Shown here one piece after another: positions 4,824-61,475 of a stretch of DNA of 64,000 bases (position 1 is its first letter; the number at the start of each line of letters is the position of its first letter). The notes beneath the pieces are model-generated. The model did no database searches. It was not told the origin of the DNA and saw only the letters and a program-made list of their open reading frames with translations. Source of the DNA: Botryllus schlosseri (taxonomy: Eukaryota); assembly GCA_051294905.1 (NCBI GenBank), contig CM119371.1, positions 37,574,001 to 37,638,000 on the forward strand, read 5' to 3'. Position numbers and translations under genes: made by a program.

Positions 4824-6125
4824 CAGTGGTTCCCAACCTTTTTGTCTTCATTCCCCACTTCAGATTTATTCCGAGCCTTCATTCCCCATCAGGACCGTAA
4901 CAGCACTTCGTGAGAAAAATTGATATAATTCATTATTGAATCGGTTTATATGATCGGGAATTGCATATATTTTGCTATCAATTTTTATCCCCTCTCTGCT
5001 CACGTAATCAGATTTACCTGTAGAGCTGAGTGAGGTCTGTTGGCAAAGGTAGGACCCCTAAATTAAACATCTTCAGGCGGACCCGTTGGTATCTTGACTT
5101 CGTTACATTATACTGCTTCCTGCCCTCCTATATCTGTTATGTCAAGAGATATAGAAGTCGCCAAAACTAAAAGGCACACACGATTTCAAATTGGTATTGC
5201 TTTGCTGTCAAATATTTTTTTCCTGTGAGGCTCAGATCCCCAGGGCACCAACCATTCGGCGCCAGCCATTTAGCCATATATACATATTGTATATATATCG
5301 AAGTTTTCGGTCACCACAAGGGCATTCCTTCTCGGCCAAGGTCTGCTCGTTGCTGATCGTTCTGGCACACTTCTGGGAGTCGCATGTCACATGGCCTATA
5401 ACTTCATATGTCTTGGTGCGTCGTGGCGCAGTAATGACCGACGCCGAAGTCTCCATTTCTATAAATTCCATGTATATTCGTGGGGAAGGGTAGCCTACCC
5501 AATATTTAAGATATTTGGCATATCGGCATCATTAAATCGCGGACCCAGCGCGAAAAAAAATTTGAAAAAAGAGGCATAAATTTCCGAATAATTACTCTAT
5601 AATTTATGTTATTCCACGAAATAATTTTGGGCCCCTTCGAGCCCGCCCCCCCCTTCAATTGTGGAGTTTGTTGTGCGGCAGTTACGGTCCTGTTCCCTAC
5701 TACCCAACACTTTTGTCATCACAGAGCAGTTATTTGCTGGTTTGACTACACAAGACACACAACCACACCAGTACGCAAGACAATCGCCTATAACTGCAAC
5801 ACAAAACGTATTGTGAACCGATACCAATAACGCTCGAAATTTCGCGAAAGCGTTATTTCACGTCAAGCTAGTCGTGCTGGATGCGTTTGTGACGCCATCA
5901 TTGGCCATCCAGAGATAAAAATGAGATCTTGTGAACAACACGCAATATAATTTTTGATACATGCAATCCAGGGCAGTTAGCTGGTAACGGTAATTGCGCA
6001 TGTGTCTCCGTGAATATGTAGACTGTCCTGTAGGCCTATATAATTTTGGACGAATGGGTCTATTCCCCACCAGAAACCATTCGATTTCCCACCAGTGGAG
6101 AATTCCCACCGTTTGGGAACCACTG
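4824..6125. mobile_element. Non-autonomous hAT element with a nested element (4890-5692)
   Basis: TIR CAGTGGTTCCCAA/TTGGGAACCACTG, perfect TSD TACTACAC. Inner TIR CAGGACCGTAAC/GTTACGGTCCTG; the inner body recurs at about 49150-49840 and 39230-39720. Confidence 0.85.
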
Positions 6126-17195: not shown

Positions 17196-17474
17196 GTGGC
17201 GAAATAATGCAGTGGTATATATCGCGGCTGCAACACCAACGGGTTGCGAGTTCGAGTCCGACCGAGGTCGACTTCAGAAACCCCATACCAGAGTGATGGA
17301 GGTTTATCTAGGCTCCTCTTCGCCACCTCATCCGGGAAAGTGGTCTCCTACAAAACGCTTAGAAGTGGGCCATGCTATAAGTCGGCAGTTACGGAATGAA
17401 AATGAAGATAATTGGCCTGGTGTAAATGATCATGGTAGTCGACACACACCATCAATACCTCAAAACAAACACAA
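17196..17474 (+). mobile_element. tRNA-derived SINE, family A
   Basis: A box, B box GTTCGAGTCC, (AAAC)n-like tail, TSD ACGTGGTT(G/A)ATA. Homologous to 44152-44429. Confidence 0.85.
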
Positions 17475-20696: not shown

Positions 20697-21060
20697 TATG
20701 TATGTATTAATGGGCACAACACAGTGGAGCTTATCACCTTTATAGGCCTTGTGCTCCACGACATGAATTTCATAATGCTCATTGGTCTTTGCTTTAGTAT
20801 TCTTTGGAACGTCTTTCAATCTCTCTTGCAGTCATTTTTCATTCTCTCTCGCTCCCACGCGTCCCCATCCAGGTCTCTGCTGCCGACTTGTAGCACGGCT
20901 CACTTTCAGTCTTGGCTTTTCAACGCACTACCGTAGCAGTGAGGTCGACGATGAGGAGCCCAGATAAACCTCCGACACGTAGACGTTGATCAGAACCGGG
21001 ATTCGAACCAGCATCCATTGATGCCGTGACTGCAGTGTTAAACCAACTGCACCACTCGCT
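20697..21060 (-). mobile_element. tRNA-derived SINE, family B
   Basis: Head with TGGTGCAGTTGG and GGTTCGAATCCC, (ATAC)n tail, TSD TCAGTTG. Absent from the paralogous site at about 14420. Confidence 0.8.
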
Positions 21061-27200: not shown

Positions 27201-30200
27201 GTTTGAATTATGCGACTCATCATCAGTATATTTATGATGAATAACGTGATGCCAAAAACCGCAGATCTTACGCGGTACTGTTTTTCATATTCTGAAAAGG
27301 CACATTTATAATTTGTAAATTCGTGATAGCACAATAACAGCTCGACGGATATCGTGATAGCGATAAAAGCAACAACAAGGATGATCTCGATATATTCATC
27401 CGAATTAAAAAGAAATGGGATCTATCTTTAGACAATATATAAGTGGTTCTAAACCATTCTGTCATTGCGGGCTCATTTTGGTCAACGACACATCGGATTC
27501 GGATCCCGATCAAATTCTGTTCAAATTTAGCTTAATTTACTCTTAGTAACTGTTGGTTTTTCTATAAGAGGTAACGGACTTGCCCATGCTATAGTCAGCG
27601 AGTCTATAGCCGAATAATAATAAATATCATATTACGACAATGGTAGGTACTGGGGCAATTGTGGTCGCCGCTGCTGTTGTGGTCGTGGTTCTTGTCATCG
27701 ACACTGAAACAAATATATCAAAAAATTGATCGGATGTAAATATCTGTGTGCGTGTGCGTGCGAGTGAATGAATGAAGGAATCATTAAAATAATTAAACTA
27801 GGGCAAGACCAATTCCTGGTATGCCGATGATATCGATTCGATATCACATTTTGTCACAAAAATCAGTATAGGTCATTTAGGGTAAGAAAATATCGCCAAA
27901 TGTTCATGATTTCAGCATGGTAATATGTGACTGCTTGACTGGAAATATTGATATATTTCATACACCTTACAGCAGTTGTTCTCAAACTGTGGTATGCGTA
28001 CCACTAGTGTAGTGGTACTCATACTTGGGGCGTGAAAGCAGCTGAAGGGGGCGCGAAGCTGGGATCAACTGAAGATTTTTGTCGCGCTCGGCGCTATTTA
28101 CCTCAATATGGTGATTATTGCTATGTTATTTATAGTCCTAATTTCATATTTGAGAAGCCTATCATCAGCAGTCACAACCTCTTATGCTATGAAAATATCC
28201 GCTAAGATTGTAAGCATTCTGGTTGCATTTTGTGATATGTCGATGTGGGGGCGCGAAATTTTTCACCATCACAAAGGGGGGCGTGTCTAAAATAGCTTGA
28301 GAACCACTGCGCTAGTGGTACTTGAGAGCTTTTTAGGTAGGCTATGTGAAGAGTGCGGTGAATAAAGTCATAGGTAGGCTTACCATATTTTGGAAATCTA
28401 ACAGGGGGTCACTTTTCCTAGGCTTGCAAAACCGGAGAAGAATTCTCAAAAACCGGTGAATTTATCCCACTTTCTGATCGGTTGACCAAAAAAAAAAAAA
28501 AAAAAAAGGTCTTCTCTCCGCTCAGAGCTCAAAAATACCGTTTTTCTCTCCGCATTGCTAGGTGGTTGACTTAAAAATAAAAAAAAAGAGGTCATCTTTC
28601 CGCTCAGAGCTCAAATCACCGTTTTTCACTCCGATATACCCGCCGGCCTTAAAAAACGGGACGTTTGGCTGACTGGTCGCGACGCCGGGACAAGATGTCA
28701 AAAAGCGGGAATGTCCCGCCTAAAGCGGGACGTATGGTAAGCCTAGTCATAGGCCTACATAATATTGGCGAGCTATGCATACGGTGGTGTTGCGTATAGT
28801 ACTAATAGGAGTAATCAATAAACATCGGTACATTCAAGTAACGTAAGTAATAAGGATGGTGTGAACGTGAGGTTCACGTTCGCGTTCTGTATGTGAACCG
28901 CATAAATTTAGAGGTTCACGCTCACAAACGAACATTGGTAGGTTCTGCACTGTGAACCTTTTTCGTAAGTTACAATTTTCACTTCATTATAACATATCTT
29001 CGGTTGAGATGTATTGTATTTGAACTGCAGGCCACTCTATGCATAGCGCCGGAAGCATAAAATGATCATAACTAAGCGAGCATGCACCTTGACAATCTCA
29101 AAAATTTTACTTGCTTTGTTACAAAAGTTTTCTCGAAATATCCAGCTTTCCGTTTGTCAATATTTAGTGACTCTCTGCTGTGAGCTTGACCCGCAATCAC
29201 ACCACATCAAGAGTGAAATACACTACATGTAGTCAGCGAATGATGCTTATTCAACCAATTACTGAAAATGCATCGTTATCTGATGTAAAAAATCTAGCAG
29301 GCGTACGGGGTCAATCTTGACTTAATATGTTTATTGTAACATAAAAACCAAATCCGTGCGATAGGGCTGTTGACTACTGCTGCATAAATTGTTAATGGGG
29401 TAATATCGGTAGCAACGTAGCAGAACTCAGACGCCGAATACTTTCTCCGGTCTGGCCTTGAATGTTAAGGCGTACCCTTACATTCCCTTGCAAGTCCTCG
29501 TCGAAATCGTTGGCAGAGCGATGGAAAAAATAGATTTTACGGGAATAATATTTCATTTGATTTTCCCAGTTGATATATTTGGCGTTCTTCAAAACGTCAA
29601 TATGCATACTTCAGCATTGGGGGATTATGTGACCCGAGTCGCTGCTAGGTATCATGTACGTATGCCTACGTACATTAATAGAGGGTATCACTTCACTGAA
29701 ATGAAGCGTTCGAATTAGCAATATTACGTCACGTGACGTCATGAGGTTCACGTTTGCGTTCACACAAAACCTTTCAAAAAGGTTCGCGTTCAAACGAACC
29801 TGAACCTTTCAGAGGTACACACCATTCCTAATAAGTAATTGAACTGGTACGCCGTGTGTTAAAAACAAATTAGTGGTACGCGATATGAAAATGTTTGAGG
29901 AGCACTGCCTGACAGGCACACGTGGTCAAATTATAATCATCATTGGTAGTCAAGCAAAAGTGAAAGTAAAAATATATTTCGAGTCCAAGCATGGCAATGG
30001 CTGCGAAACCGTTCAAATAGTTGCTCCGAGGTTTTGGAAATTCAATCAAGCTTTATGCCAGTTTTAAGTATCGTCGAAATATATCGGGGTTTTCGGTGAA
30101 GATGCCTGTTATCGGCTTTGTCGGTATCGGCAATAAAATCCAATATCGACCGGGCTCTACATTAATCGAGCCTAACTGTAAATTGCTACTCACTCATTAG

Positions 30201-32988
30201 GGCGATGAGTAAAAGGGGGTAGTCGAAGAGGCCGTCTCTTTTAGGTTTGATGGCGGGTCCGTGGTAAACAGGCTGATGTTGTACGATTGGTTCGTGATAG
30301 ATTAGCTGAGGTTGGGCCATAGGTGGATGATAGATGGGCTGGTGATATTGCGCCATGGGTGCATAATGTTTGTGTTCGTGATGTTGAAGCATGGGTACAT
30401 GTGAATGATGACCGGGATTAGGGTGGCCTTCAAGTTTAGGTCGTACCACGGGTACATGTTGATTGGATTGCTGTTGGACCGGGGGTACTTTTTGGATTGG
30501 CTGATGTTGGAGCGGGGGTACTTTTTGGATAGGCTGGTGTGGGAGCGGAGGTATTTGCTGGATGGGCTGATGTTTGACGGGGGGTACTTTTTGGATGGAC
30601 TGAGGTGGGACCGTGGGTCCATATGCGTATTCCTGATGGCCTTCATGCATTGACTGTAAATGAAAATATATTTTAAAGGCTTCGAGTCGATAGCTCGCAA
30701 GGATGTGGCCTCGATAGGAAATCCAGAAAAAATGACGGATGCAAATGCTCGCGTCCTTGTGACGAAATAGTGAAATGACTCACGTGCTGCGCAACAGGCA
30801 CACTGTAAAAAATAAAAACCTCGATTTACCGCGAAATGTTTGGAAGCACGGTAGCCAGACATTTCGTGGTAATCTAAGATTACCGTTAGTCAATGTAAAT
30901 TTAATTTACACTCGTCCGGTAATCTCACTTTACACGCCAGACTGTAATGTTACAGTCACCTCCGGTATATCTAATCTACATGTTCTCCTGTACATTTGCG
31001 ATCGAGACTGTCTTTTACCGCCTACCTACCTACATGCTGTCCCTGTAAATCAGGATTACATACCAGCTTGTAAATTCACGTACATCCATACCTATCGCAA
31101 AGCAACCCGATGCAAAAATATCGCAACATTTTCTTCACATCCCCAAAACGACATTGGAACAAACTGTATATTCATTAATGATATCACGATGAAGTGGTTA
31201 TCGATGGAAAAATATTGCTGCTGGAGGTCTAATTCTTCTTTAGGAGACATGCAGTAACACGAGTGGTCTCAAGAAAACGTGAATTAATTCCACCACCGGC
31301 CAAACTTCCAATTGTTTCTTTTTCTCGTTCTCATTCCTTCTGTTTAAGTAGTATCTTGCAGTTCCACTAAAAAGAATTCATGCGTAAGTCGCTATATAAA
31401 GCAAAGTTCCTAACCTGGACAGTGGACACGACATTATAAAGACTAAGACAAATAGGCTAACAAAAATATAACATGTTTTGAAGTACCGGTACTGGCACAT
31501 TGTGTGATGACGGCTCCGCCTTTTACATGACATAGCAGAGATTCATGACTTTATCTCTGTATTGAAGCAAAAGGTTCCTAATTTAAGGTGGCATGCGTGG
31601 CAAACAAATCCAGCAGTGGATGAAAACATATCTATGCTATGGCCCGAAAATGACATTACCAAGCCAAGAGTTTCAACTCCTCCGCAGCGGAGTATATGGT
31701 CACTATAAGTCGACAAATATCCCAAAATAGAGCAGAGAATGCGGCGAATGAAATATATCAATCATGAAATCTAAGTCATCGAGGGCTGGTGTGCAGAGTC
31801 AGATATTCACGGTAACAAATACTATGTAGTACTGTATTACCTTTTAAGATGCGTATTCCATTCAGCATTCCTAGGAATCTTCAACGATCGTGTCCACTTT
31901 CTTCAAGCACAACAAGCTTCGCTCCACCCTTTGCTCAAATCTCACTAATGGTCACTGGCCAGACGACACTCGAACGATTTCGAAATAAATGGTATTCATC
32001 CGCTGACACATGACACCAATAATATTTACTGGCCACGTTATAATGTTTGATCTGGGTCGTTTTTTCCATACAGAAACATTTATCATTGCATATAGTCCCT
32101 TTTTTCATCTAATTTCGTATAAATTGCTATATATTCCATGTGTTGTTCACTACTTACTGTACTTACCTAACCAGACGCTGCTTGTGATGTCACAGTTGTG
32201 CGTTGGTTGTTTACTACGAATCTCAGAAAAAGCAGTCACCTAATGTAACCTATTACAGGTCGACTTATCCGCCATTAACAAATGGTCAGCTGAGCATGCG
32301 GTGCCGATATTTCTAGTTTCCCCGAGCAATATTATACATCCTGAACTAATTTTCTAACTTATCAGCCTTATCCGTGACAACGAATGTAACCAGCGAGACT
32401 GGCCGTACACTGTACAGCCATTGCCTTATAATATGATATGGCTACGGTGTACCTCATTAGCTACGATTGTCAGTTATTTCTTGTACCCTACTAAGCTTAA
32501 ATTTATACTAGGGCCAACAATTTCGGTATGACAGACCCCAGTCTCGCAAACGAGGTTCAATCAGGTCAAATCACCTCTAGAATGATATATCAGTAACATT
32601 CAGTTCTACGTATACATTGACTGCAGCGATTTTGAAGCTAATCAATTTTGCCAATAGCCCGGTAAACTGCAGTAACGAGTAACTGTCAGTAATTTTGCGA
32701 AGAAATTCTGGTAACTTACTTTACAGCTATATTAAGGTAATATTACATATCAAAATGTAAAATGACAAGCTACGCACAGTAATTGGCTGCGACCGGTAAT
32801 TCGTGGTAAAATTTACAGAGATTTCCCAGTAAATCTACCAGATTTTTTACAGTGCACTCTTCTGTAGTATTCTGTTAAAAATTAGAATCAGATACGATTG
32901 TTCCGTTGAACACAAATGCAGAATATTAACCCCCTGATGCGCAGACGAAGTGAACGTAAATCACAAGGAAAAAAAATGGAATCTTCAT
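24241..32988 (-). CDS. Secreted C-type lectin-like protein, paralog 3 (about 354 aa before transposon insertion in exon 2)
   Basis: Exons 32988-32931 (MKIPFFFLVIYVHFVCASG), split exon 2 (32871-32855 plus 30798-30784), 30653-30194 (Pro/Gln/His repeats), 27703-27636 (or 27651), 25179-25022 and 24529-24241. Phases match paralog 1. Confidence 0.82.
25267..26771. mobile_element. hAT non-autonomous element containing a SINE-A fragment (about 26370-26572, minus)
   Basis: TIR CAGAGGTCTCAAA/TTTGAGACCCCTG, TSD ATTTAAAT/ATTTGAAT. Confidence 0.78.
28375..28745. mobile_element. hAT-type MITE
   Basis: TIR TAGGCTTACCATA/TATGGTAAGCCTA, perfect TSD GTCATAGG. A relative lies at about 33986-34362. Confidence 0.87.
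28851..29830. mobile_element. hAT-type MITE, inverted copy of 18942-19902
   Basis: TIR TAAGGATGGTGT/ACACCATTCCTA, TSD GTAAGTAA/ATAAGTAA, full-length similarity. Confidence 0.85.
30440..30605 (-). repeat. Coding 33-bp tandem repeat (11-aa QPIQKVPPLQH unit, about 5 copies)
   Basis: Seen directly in the 30186..30650 ORF. Confidence 0.9.
30801..32854. mobile_element. Non-autonomous CMC (EnSpm/CACTA-like) DNA transposon inserted in lectin-3 exon 2
   Basis: 13-bp TIR CACTGTAAAAAAT, 2-bp TSD CA, TTACC/GGTAA subterminal motifs. Removing the element plus one TSD restores the exon frame. Confidence 0.85.
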
Positions 32989-35900: not shown

Positions 35901-38399
35901 AGGGGAGACACGTAACACTGCCCGTAATTGTTTAAAAGAGCAGTACGTAGACGTACGTTGAGTACGTAAACGCGGAGCAGCAGCTACCGTCACCGCGCTT
36001 ACCGGCCAGATACGCCTGCGGGCATTTCATATCGTCGCCAGCCGACTGTGCTAATATTTTGAAACTCGTGCTATGTTATAATACAGGATAAATCAGTTAG
36101 CTCACCTTAAAAGCATAGAACGAATATAACTGACGGTTAGCCCGAGAAGACGAAGTAATTATAGGTGTCTAATATCCAAAATTCAATCTATTTTGTAAAT
36201 CTGTTGATGCTCCTAATTTATTTTAGTCGATATTCTGGTGTTCCTGAATCCCTCCAGAATTGAACAGTGCGACACAAGTCAAGCTTGGTGTACAGGCGTT
36301 TGCCTTTCTAATTCTTATTCTAATAAAATGAAGCTCTGATTTATATGAAAAAGATTCGATATTTTATTTCAATTCAGTCCATGATTTCTCGAATTCAATA
36401 ACTCTAATTTGAAATAAATTTGGAATATCATGGCTCGCTATAATTCTAATAACAATCTAATCTCGAGAAGCTGAACATATTCAGTTGTCTCTGTTGCCTC
36501 TGTTGCCGGCCACTTTTCAAATCACAAGGAAAGAATATTCTACGGAGTAATATGCTGCATGTGACGTTTGGAATAAATAGTCTAATCTACTATAAACCAG
36601 AGGTTGATAAAACATGTCGACAGACTTGCTCCTTGCCACTCGAGGATGTCATTAAATGCCACGACCGAATTCAAATTCACCGAATTTGACAGGCTCTTCC
36701 AATTACCGGTCCAGAGTCGCTGTATCATTTATAATATCTTGTCGTAGTTGTGCGATGATGGTTAGTACATTCGCTTGCCTCCATTGCTATGGACGCATCT
36801 GCATTGATATCTAAAGCAGTTGTTCCATTATCTACTTGCACCAAATCCGGTTCTTCAAGGTGACGGCATGTCGCCATCCACCCATCTATCTAAACCACCT
36901 ATTTTAAATGTTCGGGGCGGGATTACAAGTTTAAATCTGGCATCGAAAATGTTTACGTTCCCGTTTGAACATTTCGGCAAAACACGAACGAGAATATTAT
37001 ATAAGATTCAATTCTGAAATGTTATCTGGAATCTTCTGAAAAATGAAATCTATCATCGACTCAAATGTCACTTGATGGCTCTCAGTAAATGAGTAAATGT
37101 CAAATGGATTGATTTCGGAAAGTGGATTAAAGTAGGTCATCGTAGCTGACCTGGTCTGTATTCGGAATATCGCGCAAAGTTTGACAACTATAAAATATTC
37201 AATTTTTACAAATTAGATTTCAATTGGAAATATAGCTACACAGTTTTTGCCAAATTGAATTATAACTTCAATTACTGAATTCGCAAAAACTCGGAAATTG
37301 AATTCAATTCAGAATTACAAAGAAATACAACGAAGATCAAGCTCAGGTCATATCACATGAGATTTTTTTCTCATAAGCAAGAGAATTGCAAATGCCTGTA
37401 TATCAGGGGCGGAAAACTTCTTCAGTCGGCGATATGGCTAGGGGAAAATTACGTAATCAATAAATCAGCTCCGAAGCTCCGAGCTCCGAAGCTCGTGTGA
37501 TAAATAACATTAGCACGTTGCAAGTGGACGCTAAATAAGGTGTGATAGCAAGCAATATCTATATATTATTCGCGTAATTACAACAAAGTAATCGTATTTA
37601 ATGCAAACTTTATGCATGAAGAATTGAGTCCAAAAACAGTAGTCAATGAATTTATTAAGGTAATGTACAATAGGTGTTGAAGTCAGTTGGACATCAGTGG
37701 ACGATCAACAAGTTCTTTTAACTGTGGCCGCATGTTGGAGGTTGCAAAGACTTCACGTGAACATGAGTGACACTGCTTTATCTTGTTGATGTTCATGGTC
37801 GAGAAAGTTTGCTCGCAAATGTATGTTGACCAGACATGGGGTAATGGCGATTATTAATCGTAATCGATTACGACGATTACAGCATTTTCAAGTAATCGTA
37901 ATCACAATCGATTACATTCGAAAAAAATCCGAAGTAATCGTAATCGTAATCGACTACTTCCCATATCTAATCGATTTCTTTGTGAAAGAACGATTACGTT
38001 TTGTTTGTACAAGGACTATGACATAAACTGAATATTCGTGAACAAGAATGAAATAATATACCACGTTAGCGATAGCACAAACGTCTGATTTTCAAACACC
38101 ACTACTCATTATTACGTCGGAAGTATTAGCTCCGCTCGTCATTGCGTAAGAAGTATCCACACATAGTAAACAGACATGCGATGGATATTGTAATGTGATT
38201 GTAAGAACACCCCACGTGGTGTATATCAGGTTATCAATACACTACAGAAGCCCCTACGTCGCAGCAGGATATTGATCACCACTCTGCCTATAGTTTCAAA
38301 TAGTAACTTATGTATTGATGTTTGGTTGTGCTTAGTTAAACGCAGTTTCAACGTTGCTGCTTGGCGAGCAGTAGTCCTACGTAACATAACATAACATAA

Positions 38400-38784
38400 C
38401 ATGGTTGGGTTTTATTTTTATCTGAACAAGTCACACACAATGTACAATGCGATAAGACACAATGCGATGGCATGAACAGATATAGGAGGATGTAGAACGA
38501 CACGCATCAGTAGCGATCCTGTACTCTAACATCCACCTCGGCCTAGAGTGCCCGATGTCACAGATCTTTTTCGATGTTGATCTCTTTGAAGCCGCTGCCC
38601 TTTCTACTAGTTCTTTTCCATTCATTGTGAGTGCTTTCTTTCGTCGGGTCTTTTTCTGGGCTTTTTTGTCGCCGTAAGAACGGCAACGGCAGGGGAAGAG
38701 GAGCCCAGATAAACCTCCGGCGGGAATCGAACGCGGTTCTCCTGCGTGCTGGGCGCTTATCGTAACCACTACACTATCTCCCCT
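38400..38784 (-). mobile_element. tRNA-derived SINE, family C (3' end uncertain)
   Basis: Head GGGGAGATAGTGTAGTGG...GTTCGATTCCC followed directly by the shared core GGAGGTTTATCTGGGCTCCTC. Confidence 0.6.
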
Positions 38785-39744
38785 ACGTACGCACGTACAC
38801 CTGACAAAAATTCGGAATTTTGTACTTGTCGAATGAAACATTGCAGTTACCACAACGAAGCATTACAAATAAACAGCTGCTGATATATATCATAACCGAG
38901 CCGCGTGCTTAGCCGTTTCTCGTAACAACAGCACGCAGTATCTGTATTAAGTTTAAGGCAGAATTTTTATGTTCACTATATCATATTCTCATATAACTAC
39001 TTGAAACGGGTGCCAATCGTTATTTCACAGTTCGTTACTCAGCATTTGGACCTGCCGCCATAACCATCCGCTTTATATAGCCTGACATGTTAGCGTGGGT
39101 TGTAGCTAGAATCAGAACCAACAGCAATAATCCGTCCCCCAGTCCAACCGTTGGTCAATTTTCAAAACTGAATTTCGTCAATACTATTGGTCATTGCATT
39201 AGATTACTATTCATTTTTAACCTCTCTCAGCCCCGAGTGTCAGATTTACCTGTAGAGCTGGGGCACGTAATTCATAATTATAGCATCTGGTATGTTGTTA
39301 TAATTACTTTTTTGTATGTTGTTAATTCCTGACCGCAGTCAGTTGATTAATCAAAAGATATTGTACTCGCCCAAACGTAGCAGACTAAAAGAATATATTT
39401 CGTGAGACGCACACGCAAATTGTCATGGCTTTATTCCTATGTGGATGCACCGAGTGGCATTTGCATTGTGGGCTCAGATTGGAAGGACAGGACTATTATT
39501 AGTCACGCCCACCCAGCACGACTATTGACAATGGACGAATACCCTAAGTTTCGGCTAAGGTATTTCTTTGGTATCACATCCCGTGGAGTTGCGTGTTGGC
39601 CGAAACTGCATATGTCTTTTGGTGTGTTGTGGGATCGTGGCGCGGTAATGACCGGCACCGAAATGCCTGTTCCCATAAAATAGCCTATGCATGTTTTTCT
39701 TGAAGGGGAGAGGTATGCATTTCAAACCCAGCTATCTACTGGAG

Positions 39745-40226
39745 CAGGGGTCACCAACCGTTTTGAAAAAAAAAACTACTTCTTGTGTAGTGTGTACTGA
39801 TTATTGCGACGACCGACGGGTTACCACTTACTCCCACCGTTTATCCGTGCTCCGTTGGATTTCTTCACTTAGAGTAAGACAATCAGAGCACTGGGCCGGG
39901 TTTCCGCCCCTTACCAAGAACGAAAAACGCTCACTCGCCGGGACTCACACCAGCTCCTCTGGGCTCAGTTGCGTTGCTGCAGTGCGGGTCAAAGCGCTAA
40001 TCTCCGCGACGAGACTTGGAAATATTAACTATAGATTCCCGTTGAGCCACCGCGTTGGCGAAGACGAGCAATGCCCCGAGCGACTGCGTTCGTCTGTTCC
40101 TTGGGGTCGGCTGACCCATGTTCAACTGCTGCTCATATGAAACCAGCTTCAACTTTTAAATCTTTCATTTGAATATTTGCTACAGCGACCGCGGGCGACT
40201 CATTTGGTCCGCGTTGGTGACCCCTG
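39745..40226. mobile_element. hAT MITE with 28S rRNA-derived interior
   Basis: TIR CAGGGGTCACCAAC/GTTGGTGACCCCTG, TSD TACTGGAG/TACTAGAG. Confidence 0.87.
39828..40183 (-). rRNA. Degraded, internally deleted 28S rRNA fragment (non-functional)
   Basis: Plus strand matches the 28S antisense core as recalled: TTACTCCCaCCGTTTAtCCG..TTTCTTCACTT..CAGAGCACTGGGC, GGAAATATTAAC..GATTCCC, CTGACCCATGTTCAACTGCTG.TCA.ATG.AACC, TTTGAATATTTGCTAC. Confidence 0.82.
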
Positions 40227-41580
40227 TACTAGAGACATTTGAATCGCGAAGCTCGAAGAATATTTTCAAGAAGTAATTAAATTCTCGAAAATACTCTAAT
40301 TTATGTTGGTTTACGAAATACTTTTGAGTCCCCTTAGAGCACGCTCCCCACCCTATTAAGGAATTTGGGGTGCGGCAGGTAAAGACCTGGCAATAATGCA
40401 AATCGTTGGGTGCGATAAATCATCCCAATAAAGTTGGGCAATTGGTATATTATGACGTAATAAGCAAATGACACATGATGTATGAAGAGAGTTGATATCT
40501 CATTAAGCCTTTTCATCGCAATCCTTGTATTGTCTTCCAATATATCCTTTAAGATTATAGCACTAAGAAGCAAAACAAATGTAATCGTGAGTAATCGTGA
40601 TTACTTTTCCAATGTAATCGTAATCGTGATCGACTACTTCCTGATTTTGCTGTAATCGTAATCGTAATCGTAATCGCGTGATTCTGAAGTAATCGTAATC
40701 GCAATCGATTACATTCATGAAGTAATCACCCCATGTCTGTGTCTTACCGTCCCGAGGGTTGACTATTTAATATTCATTCACTAGAAACTTCTTGTATGTC
40801 AACTTGAATTTCGACATGTTCGGATATTTTATTCAACATAGCATCAATAAAATCAATTACACATGAAATAATTCAAGTTGTTTTCAATCACGATGATATT
40901 TTCATCGGTCCAAGACATACACACAATGCACCATGTATATTGCATTGTACATTGTATGTCTTGAGCAGATGAAAATATAATCTATCGAATATTGATGTTG
41001 ATCAAGATTCCTTTCAAACTGATACTCTCCATTAGTGGTAACAGTGACCTGAAAGGTGTTATGTTCAACCGTTATCCTTGATCCAGGCAAATGAATGTAG
41101 AAATAAATTCCGAATGTCCACGCAATCACGAATATCCAGTTGTGACGTCATAGTGGTTTGACATTGACAATTAAAAATACAGGGAAAATATAGCTCCCTT
41201 GCCGAAATATCCAAGTACTATAGCTGTTGAACTGACTATTTTGAGGGTTCCAGCGATCCCATATCTTATTCGTCGGCTTTATCGGGCGGTATTCGTCCGT
41301 AGGCTCACACAACATGGTTTTTTGAAAGTATTCACATAATTATGGGGTATTATATTACCACTTGGAAAAACACATTTTTTAAAGGCCTTTGTCTAAAACG
41401 CTGTTTAAAACATGTTTTACACAAAGTGTTTTGAAACACCGTTTGTTTTAAATTCAACCTTAATCGCAGCACTGACATCGTTTATTTCAATGTAGAAACA
41501 ATTGGAACTGGAGACAACTTCACCGTGGGGTCATCGGTGGTATTGGATCGTTAAATAAAGCCAATGGGTCAATAGAATAA

Positions 41581-48828: not shown

Positions 48829-49998
48829 CAGTGGTTCCCAACCTTTTTCGACTCATCGCCCCCTTTTGAAGCTCCACACCGATCATCGCCCCCCAAATAT
48901 CGGGAACCGAAAAACAGCACTTCGTCACCCCCCCCCCCTCCGAAAAAAACGTTTGTCTTTGGCCCCATATGGTGATAAGCCAAACCCCAGACCCCCCTTA
49001 GCCAGTGGGCTTTTTGTCGCCACATATCAGCTATAGGCCCTACCTTATTCATATTCTGTTTGTTGTGTCACCGTATTTCGCCTAAACGAGCGAAGCGCGA
49101 CAAATTTATATAATTCATGTTTGAATCGGTCAATATGGTCGATGTGGTATGTTGGAAAAGGTAGGACCCCTAAATAATAATTAAACATCTTCGGCGGAAT
49201 CGTTGTTATATTGACTTCTTTACATGATAATATTTCGTGACCTCCTATATCTGCTATGCCAGAAGATATGGAAATCGTCAAAACGTACCAAACTAAAAGA
49301 CGCACATGATTTCATATTGGTATATCTTTACTGTCAAATAATTTTTTCCTTGCGGGTTGGCATTTGTCCTGTAGGGTTAAGGTCGCCAGGACAGGAACAT
49401 TCGACGCCAGCCATTGAGGCGCCAATGGACAGTTAAACATATATTGTATATATATCGAAGTTTTCGCTCAGCACAAGGGCATTCCTTTCGGACTAGGTCT
49501 TCTCGCTGCTTATCGTTCTGGCACACTTCTCGGAGTCGCATGTTACATGGCCTCTAACTTCATATGTCTTGGTGCGTCGTGGCGCAGTAATGGCCGACGC
49601 CGAAGTCTCCCATTTCCATAAATCATGCGTATTTTTGTTGGGTGACGGGGACCCCGACATCAAGATACATGACAATATTAAATCGCGCGCAGCGCGAAAA
49701 CTTTTGAAAAAGTCGCATGAATTTCTAAAAAATTATACTCTATCATTCATGTCAATTCACGAAATAAATTGGGCTTCCTTCGATTTCGGGCCCTCCACTC
49801 CCAATCGGGGGATCTGGGGTGCGGCAGTTACGGTCCCGACTCCAATATAGCCGTTTTAACGCGCCATCGCCTCCCTATCGCCCCCTTCGTTGTTTTCGCC
49901 CCCCATCGCCCCCTTCTTCCGTTTTCGCCCCCCCCCATCGCCCCCTTCATCATTTTCGCCCCCCTAGACCGCCAAATCGCCCACGTTGGGAACCACTG
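48829..49998. mobile_element. Non-autonomous hAT element
   Basis: TIR CAGTGGTTCCCAAC, perfect TSD AGCTAGAC, ATCGCCCC subterminal repeats. Interior is shared with 5040-5692. Confidence 0.87.
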
Positions 49999-60300: not shown

Positions 60301-61475
60301 CAAACCGAGATAAGAAGTACAGCCGATAAGAGATCTTATTGTACATCGTATATCTTACCCGAATAAATATGTTATTACTATATTTTATTGGTATAAGAAT
60401 ATTTCCAAATGAATTCGCTACAGAAACTCTATACTACTTCCTAGCTGCCGTAGGTTTGTCTGCTGTCTGGCGGCCTTGGGCATATCAATTGTTACAGTCC
60501 GTGACTAAGTATTCGTCCACAGGTGCGTTGGCGGCCGGAGTACCCTCATTCAACGGCCTGGCTTGTCTCTTCGGATCGATTTCCTCATTCGCCATGACGC
60601 TTATCTTTCCGTTCTTCTGTGATATTATGCTACACGTGACAGGCGGAAGGTCGCGTGACCTCGACGACGAGGGGAGAGACCTGATTTCAGGAGACGCGGA
60701 AAGGTTCGCTAGATTTTTAAACCATCTGACTAGGCCTGAATAAAATCGTGTGCGTGATGGTCAGAATATTTCACATACGGACATTTTATGCGCCTACCAA
60801 GAATGTAATGCCAGTTCCACATGACGTTGCTAATTGCTGAGCGAGATAGTGTTATGGTGATGCGTCCGGTATCTTGATCGGTAGGCCGTAGGTTCAATCC
60901 ACGAACGCGGTCTGACCAAAATCCACGGATAGCACATAGGAGAAAAATTGATGATCTCTCTCTCTTTCTCTCTCTTCGACAATACCTATTTCAGTACACT
61001 TCTGACAATGATGTGGGTTGATCACGACTCCATGAATATTTCCACACCTTGTTCTACAATATTCACCTGTTGGGATGCGGCCAATCGAGTTCTACAGCCT
61101 TCCACAGTGGAATATAGTGTTGAAACTTGAAGTATCGTTGACAATCGAACACTTAGTGACAAGAACCTAATAATTACACGATCTCACGGTACTCGAATCA
61201 TTAGCTTTAATACTCGTTTGAGATTTCAGTAGTGGAATCATTGAGCCAGACTGATGTGATTATAGATCCGAAACTCTTTATGCAGGCCGACCGGAGATAT
61301 CCAGATATCCGGAGCTAGAGTGGCGCGTGACGTCATCTTCATGGTCCTCGGGGCGGCAGGGCTGATCTACGGCCTTTACAGCACCGTCGTATTTCTGCAA
61401 TCGCGCGGAATCGACCATGCGATGCAAGGCTGTCATGACGTCATACCCACAAACACGAGCGTGGCGTCGTATTAG
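51384..61475 (+). CDS. Divergent SLC36-like (AAAP / Aa_trans family) amino-acid transporter, 9 coding exons, 480 aa
   Basis: Exons 51384-51439, 51908-52081, 53369-53549, 55052-55282, 56924-57028, 57084-57256, 59612-59763, 60523-60703 and 61286-61475. All GT-AG and phase-consistent, 1443 nt. Motifs LPWAMKFGGIVAGP, FLAFGDVTCASVTFNLP, FGSISSFAMTLIFP and RDVIFMVLG parallel SLC36 in order. Confidence 0.85.
55674..56632. mobile_element. TA-flanked (Tc1/mariner-pogo-like) MITE in transporter intron
   Basis: Perfect 25-bp TIR GGGGAGATGTGGTACCGATGGATCA with TA on both sides. Confidence 0.87.
57877..58060 (-). mobile_element. hAT transposase dimerisation-domain remnant
   Basis: SPAVYARLECCQPTTAAVER, similar to the remnant at 16401-16583. 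Confidence 0.6.

Follow-up and report, generated by a model that had tools for sequence, protein, structure and literature searches.

In animals, Pack-TIRs carry host DNA, 100-5,000 bp long, between the two termini of a single TIR element (Tan et al., 2021, PMC8277862), and Pack-hAT-N8_XT from Xenopus tropicalis is an example of the hAT type. Microhomology is common at the breakpoints of these elements (190/281), and multicopy cases are rare: 4 of them (1.4%) are reported, each amplified to a few copies through its own ends, with distinct TSDs. To pass the filter for young cases, a capture had to be at least 90% identical to one unique parent sequence and to have 80-120% of that parent's length (PMC8277862); the word "rRNA" has no occurrence in the main text of that article. 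Other elements carry DNA derived from ribosomal genes. Pokey and mPok, from Daphnia, are piggyBac elements with intergenic-spacer cargo, and Pokey inserts into 28S (Garcia et al., 2024, PMC10946416). In mammals, SINE28 is a dispersed, retroposed SINE that derives from 28S rRNA (Longo et al., 2015, as described in PMC10946416 and PMC5786205). The table of rDNA-derived transposable elements in the former review gives 28S only for SINE28, and its only DNA transposons are Pokey and mPok, with spacer DNA (PMC10946416).

The locus considered here is found in a stretch of 64,000 nucleotides from Botryllus schlosseri (contig CM119371.1, positions 37,574,001 to 37,638,000 of the forward strand), hereafter the window. 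The evidence supports the view that positions 39745-40226 of the window are a hAT-type MITE carrying captured 28S DNA. The initial annotation had described TIRs and an 8-bp TSD enclosing an insert, and both are confirmed: the 14-bp TIRs (39745-39758 and 40213-40226) are complementary at 14/14 positions, and the TSD copies, TACTGGAG on the left and TACTAGAG on the right, are identical at 7/8. The element is 482 bp long and contains no transposase, the sole long frame being a 153-codon stop-free stretch which begins in the flank. It lies in turn within two larger elements. The features are as follows:

37831-40739, no strand: outer non-autonomous hAT-like element, 2,909 bp (TIR and inverted arms)
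37831-38007, plus strand: left arm of the outer element, a 12-bp TIR followed by a short subterminal repeat array (repeat scans, alignment)
39170-40389, plus strand: older middle MITE relic, called H, split by the 28S MITE (homology on both sides of the insertion)
39737-39744, no strand: left TSD copy, TACTGGAG (7/8 against the right copy)
39745-39758, plus strand: left 14-bp TIR of the inner hAT-type MITE (14/14)
39759-39827, plus strand: left subterminal region of the inner MITE, not rRNA (BLAST and shuffle scores)
39828-39897, minus strand: 28S segment A, Rfam model positions ~2200-2260 (Rfam, alignments, shuffles)
39898-40183, minus strand: 28S segment B, Rfam model positions 1460 to ~1720 (Rfam, alignments, shuffles, reads of RNA run X23)
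40184-40212, plus strand: short right subterminal region of the inner MITE (RNA reads diverge after 40208)
40213-40226, minus strand: right 14-bp TIR of the inner MITE (14/14)
40227-40234, no strand: right TSD copy, TACTAGAG, with central TA (7/8 against the left copy)
40571-40739, minus strand: right arm of the outer element, inverted with respect to the left (122 identities between arms)

When the window was scanned for TIR pairs flanked by TSDs, 10 elements were detected, the 28S MITE included, and the region is therefore rich in hAT MITEs. TA occupies TSD positions 4-5, in at least one copy, in 7 of these 10 pairs, again including the 28S MITE.

The identity of the cargo was examined with Rfam and with a reference set of 16 eukaryotic LSU loci from metagenomes, whose own identity as LSU rests on a search pattern and on alignments. 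In narrow Rfam searches, the check named in the initial annotation, the LSU_rRNA_eukarya model matches the minus strand of the cargo in two places, both with scores below the gathering score. The search of 39800-40200 gives a match from model position 1460 onward (E 5.9e-6), and that of 39810-39910 aligns 39837-39895 with model positions 2201-2253 (E 0.0099); the LSU match is absent in the wider searches, of 2 kb and of the whole window at the gathering score. Segment A (39828-39896 in the alignments) is 75-80% identical to the metagenome LSU loci over 69 columns, with a 6-nt insertion relative to them, and segment B reaches 62-65% over ~300 columns with the best four of the 16 loci. When tested against three of the LSU loci, 0/200 shuffles reached the score of either segment, and both flanks scored at shuffle level. 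The scores of the two MITE ends were reached by 2/200 (left) and 3/200 (right) shuffles against locus L013 and were at shuffle level against the other two; BLAST of the left subterminal region, 39759-39827, against the 16 loci gave no match. Rfam, LSU alignments and shuffle test thus agree with the original proposal of two minus-strand 28S segments inside the MITE. They amount to 356 bp of 28S, of which no second copy was found in the 64-kb window.

Sequences from public runs were also compared with the locus. Contigs of runs X1, X5 and X6 (X1 may be the source sample of the window) and raw reads of the RNA run X23 were aligned to positions 39385-40584, at 80% likeness.

Segments A and B are colinear with the order of 28S and abut at 39897/39898. 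The gap previously placed between them, from 39896 to about 39905, does not exist, although the two segments stand: in the alignment to reference locus L002, segment B reaches 39898. The start of B and the start of A are separated by 809-933 nt in 7 of the 11 LSU loci compared, as against 287 nt in the element, in line with the earlier statement that the two are normally hundreds of nucleotides apart. In L002, 521 nt of 28S lie between the segments, and the cargo is accordingly without ~520 of ~870 nt. A single captured stretch that underwent one internal deletion explains this arrangement more simply than two captures would. In the reference loci B ends in CCCTG and A starts with TTCTG, which suggests that a 3-nt microhomology may have existed at the junction; the evidence for it comes from reference loci that are distant and from a letter in the minority, and the window copy has a different base at 39897. 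The base predicted by the references at this position accounts for 3% of the X1 depth (63 contigs) and is present in all ten X23 reads there.

With regard to the donor, 33 X23 RNA reads break off at 40033, the site of a derived indel in the element, and go on from there in canonical 28S letters to a variable stretch in agreement with the element. These reads share the majority letters of the DNA runs at 40009, 40017 and 40020, where the window copy differs. The distant reference LSU loci match the variable stretch of the cargo poorly. We infer that the X23 reads come from rRNA rather than from a further subfamily of the repeat; because the variable regions of the cargo match these rRNA-like reads, the likely donor is the host's own rDNA. 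Run X6 shows a very deep rDNA-like signal at 40033 and 40105-40144, with a variable-region loose end unlike that of X23, which perhaps corresponds to a second rDNA type or to another organism in the run.

The history that we consider probable is that of a Pack-type hAT MITE which copied 28S once from host rDNA in break repair and was amplified as the passenger of an outer element. The interior of the MITE would have been replaced by a rDNA template of ~870 nt during the repair of a DNA break, with ~520 nt skipped or later deleted at the 3-nt microhomology. The resulting Pack-MITE would have moved modestly alone, its cargo drifting, and left a minor class of some tens of copies. One copy, as the TSD and the relatives with an empty site show, inserted at a central-TA site of an older MITE relic. 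Finally, this composite would have been multiplied through its outer ends by a transposase supplied in trans.

The capture step could also have followed an RNA route, itself compatible with passenger amplification, in which a fragment of 28S rRNA was reverse-transcribed into the MITE by an enzyme of LINE/R2 type and a template jump caused the deletion. Segment A ends 17 nt before the position that we take to be the R2 nick in 28S, in 5 of the 6 loci with that context; the nearness to R2 pointed out in the initial annotation therefore holds, with 17 nt in place of ~20. Ribozymes of R2 cut 28S co-transcripts 9-36 nt upstream in many animals (PMC3774820), a range which includes the sense 3' end of the cargo if the nick is where we assume, and a 6-nt direct repeat is present near both cargo edges (39810 and 40186). 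However, this repeat is several nucleotides off the left edge and overlaps motifs that are repeated in the MITE's own ends, and the end of the cargo has no poly(A). In addition, -17 is absent from the cleavage sites given in the running text of the same article (-13, -25, -27, -28, -29 and the limits of the range), and the R2s of sea squirts are predicted to cut at the junction (PMC3774820). The hint of a link with R2 thus found no supporting evidence, the closeness of segment A to the nick is treated as chance, and the RNA route is considered rather unlikely. One metagenome locus, L005, diverges from the usual 28S sequence just a few bases ahead of the R2 site, ~30 nt past the homology with segment A, and may contain an insertion or an intron there.

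The number of contigs aligned to the 1.2 kb was 18,648 in X1, 4,024 in X5 and 2,612 in X6, with depth present in 30/30 bins in each run. Median summed depth in X1 reaches 66k over the left flank, 28k over the cargo and 75k over the right flank, as compared with a median of ~10 for the 8 single pieces listed; the corresponding X5 values are 278k, 156k and 215k, as compared with ~88. The depth of X6 is very uneven and was left out of the ratios. Summed contig depth is not a copy number, and copies and flanks were judged from depth and not counted directly, but the crude ratio suggests that there are roughly thousands of copies of the 28S MITE. Amplification and dispersal of the sequence, raised as a possibility in the initial annotation, agree with this high depth in three runs. 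Letters private to the window copy occur in its interior and on both sides, and at 93 of the 1,200 positions 10% or more of the X1 depth differs, subfamily variants included.

The flanks of the 28S MITE are themselves repeats. Both are homologous to 4890-5692 and ~49110-49838 in the window and form the middle relic, whose right TIR ends at 40389; its left end is unrecognisable, so that its start is approximate. Two further hAT MITEs of the window, 4824-6125 and 48829-49998, have the same TIR and perfect 8-bp TSDs and differ in their subterminal regions. Each of them holds the ~800-bp middle MITE that hosts the 28S element, and the nesting is thus recurrent.

Since depth remains high past 40389, as far as 40584, the amplified unit must be larger than the middle MITE. 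The outer element at 37831-40739 has the TIR and subterminal repeat array of a non-autonomous hAT: its TIR matches at 12/12 positions, and its arms (177 and 169 nt) agree at 122 positions, with an alignment score that 0/300 shuffles reached. The two arms contain the only exact matches to the outer TIR in the 64 kb and 11 of the 12 arm-repeat matches in the window. No transposase-length ORF was found in the element, its longest stop-free stretch having 153 codons. The 8-bp sequences that flank it match in register at 3/8 positions, short of an 8-bp TSD, which may have decayed. As the flanks agree at only 3/8 positions and 37831-39384 lies outside the read coverage (contig depth for the outer element covers 39385-40584), this element is the likely, though not proven, carrier of the 28S MITE. 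The same two points, the lack of a TSD at the outer ends and the left 1.55 kb lying beyond the read alignment, would fit a different carrier, such as a shorter unit, a rolling-circle or retro-element, or a segmental or tandem duplicated block; so would the drop in depth in the last bin (40545-40584), which an edge effect would equally produce. Nevertheless, a 12/12 TIR and inverted arms of ~175 nt enclose the entire high-depth stretch, and the single copy of the cargo in 64 kb argues against a local tandem array. A different carrier is therefore regarded as unlikely.

Passenger amplification predominates in our reading over self-amplification, in which the 28S MITE would be an independently mobile Pack-hAT family inserted at thousands of different sites. 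The initial annotation had named many copies with different TSDs as the proof of amplification, and the perfect TIRs, the near-perfect TSD and the high depth within the MITE are what such a family would show. The flanks, however, are as deep as the interior or deeper, and the share of contigs which continue into unlike sequence is 0.01 in each of X1, X5 and X6 (~186 of 18,648 in X1), a figure to be read with the caution that junction contigs with less than ~30 nt of the element may escape alignment, which would mask free insertions. No loose end at either TIR edge occurs among the 18 contig rows listed (the listing gives 24 loose-end rows in all, and there are 1,602 further rows), and one X5 contig (record 11; 266 nt, depth 403, 19 other letters) runs through the left TSD and the TIR and on into segment A. 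Empty-site joints are present as well, with diverged letters between their two sides; relatives of the host repeat without the insert join 39726 to 40229-40244, and the best supported among the 15 joint rows listed (168 are further) have depths of 8-40 in X1 and 87-437 in X5. With flanks as deep as the interior, 1% of unlike run-on and shallow empty-site joints, most copies probably have the same insertion site, within a larger repeat. Independent insertion was consequently not borne out as the main route: the majority likely derives from one site, and a minor class may consist of free copies. At 39727-39744, the empty relatives appear ~3 nt shorter than the pre-insertion allele implied by the TSD, possibly as a result of an earlier excision footprint or a small duplication.

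The minor class is recognized by letters at 39882, 39897, 39923, 39929 and 39937, which account for 1.4-4.5% of the depth (34-63 contigs in X1 and X5), as compared with 0.1% for two other transversion rows of the same table; those at 39882 and 39897, at least, restore the reference 28S letters. Eight X23 RNA reads continue differently after 40208, which suggests a longer right end in relatives of the MITE. This class (1-5% of depth) may be the original free MITE family, and the passenger copy would derive from an older, low-copy class of the MITE. Together with the longer right end seen in some reads and contigs (the X23 loose end at 40208, and X5 record 15, whose alignment also ends at 40208), it speaks for some independent movement; as the main mode of amplification, self-amplification is considered quite improbable on the grounds given above.

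Concerning function, the fold of the cargo gives a z of -1.0, with 19 of 100 shuffles equally good; the Rfam alignment shows many broken LSU model pairs, and the LSU alignments show indels in the conserved 28S core. On these grounds the cargo is predicted to be probably neutral. In X23, 223 reads fall on the 1.2 kb out of 12.9 million read (~6% of the run), none with at least 99% likeness, 13 with 95-99% and 210 below 95%; the majority class of the element is barely represented. Ten X23 reads share the minor-class letters at 39882, 39897 and 39937 and likely cross the fused junction, and one related locus may be transcribed at a low level. The rRNA-like reads split ~17 to 13 between mate directions, from which the library looks unstranded. 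None of the public runs listed with the element sequence is recorded as RNA; their shares are small and were not used as evidence. It would be conceivable, though very doubtful, that thousands of fused 28S fragments feed small RNAs complementary to rRNA, or that a self-mimic core let the carrier escape silencing. A functional cargo, whether through antisense or small RNAs acting on 28S rRNA or through an rRNA-like core that shields the carrier from silencing, would suit the very high repetition and the ten junction reads, but is most improbable in view of the scarce and dissimilar reads and the missing fold signal. A single-copy, one-off insertion is rejected on the high repetition seen in contig depth, and contamination or misassembly because contigs of three runs from three studies carry the sequence.

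Several other features of the window were observed. A minus-strand, tRNA-like sequence of SINE type occupies 38690-38790, within the outer element; the edge of this sequence matches 17298-17324 and 20950-20974, and ARAGORN detected no tRNA in it. At 40892-40982 there is a 91-bp palindromic element with weak Rfam matches to miRNA precursors and a partial copy at 38410-38454, in the outer element; it is likely another MITE. Pfam searches of six ORFs of the window gave one weak match only, that of the open frame at 60333-60743 to an amino-acid transporter family (PF01490, E 0.0099, below the cutoff), possibly a coding exon. On the minus strand, 30186-30889 contains overlapping open frames with a proline/glutamine-rich tandem repeat, one of which had no Pfam match.

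One point of significance is that nesting followed by amplification through the outer ends would be a high-copy route for captured DNA that is missed by animal Pack-TIR screens. Thousands of 28S-like fragments could also distort read-based estimates of rDNA copy number, rRNA filtering, FISH and 28S marker PCR, and comparing filled with empty sister carriers would be a natural way to test the effect of an rRNA-like cargo on silencing. If the cargo is neutral, as is thought likely, it is a curiosity of repeat evolution.

With respect to its ends, the 28S MITE resembles the Charlie/SPIN-like (Buster-clade) hAT MITEs with central-TA 8-bp TSDs. The likeness consists in a CAG-starting TIR and an 8-bp TSD, no transposase being linked to the element; the difference is an interior of rDNA. 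As in the Pack-TIRs, host DNA (356 bp of 28S) lies between the ends of one TIR element. Its cargo differs from theirs: it is old rDNA with an internal deletion, and its repetition is far higher, for the most part through nesting. It lacks ~520 of ~870 nt, 210 of the 223 X23 reads are below 95% likeness and rDNA is multicopy, so the 28S MITE, judged from its sequence, would work like a Pack-TIR and yet fail a screen for young captures. Pokey and mPok are similar in being a DNA transposon or MITE with internal rDNA-derived sequence; they have piggyBac ends, a 4-bp target and a location inside 28S, whereas the 28S MITE is a hAT with an 8-bp TSD, contains 28S coding DNA and is flanked by non-rDNA sequence, outside the rDNA. 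SINE28 is likewise a dispersed repeat of 28S-derived sequence, but the 28S MITE is bounded by TIRs and an 8-bp TSD and lacks a tail: there is no A-run at the end of the cargo, and the only repeat is the 6-nt one, offset from the edges. The literature searched contained no report of a hAT with 28S cargo (Repbase, Dfam, supplements and most subscription journals lay outside the search). A pattern for the fused junction had 0 matches in metagenome contigs and one for the TIR 0 in viral and prokaryote contigs, collections which are unlikely to hold this animal and are uninformative in this respect. As far as these searches reach, a hAT MITE with 28S coding cargo is a new combination, since the review table has 28S only in SINE28 and, among DNA transposons, only spacer DNA (PMC10946416).
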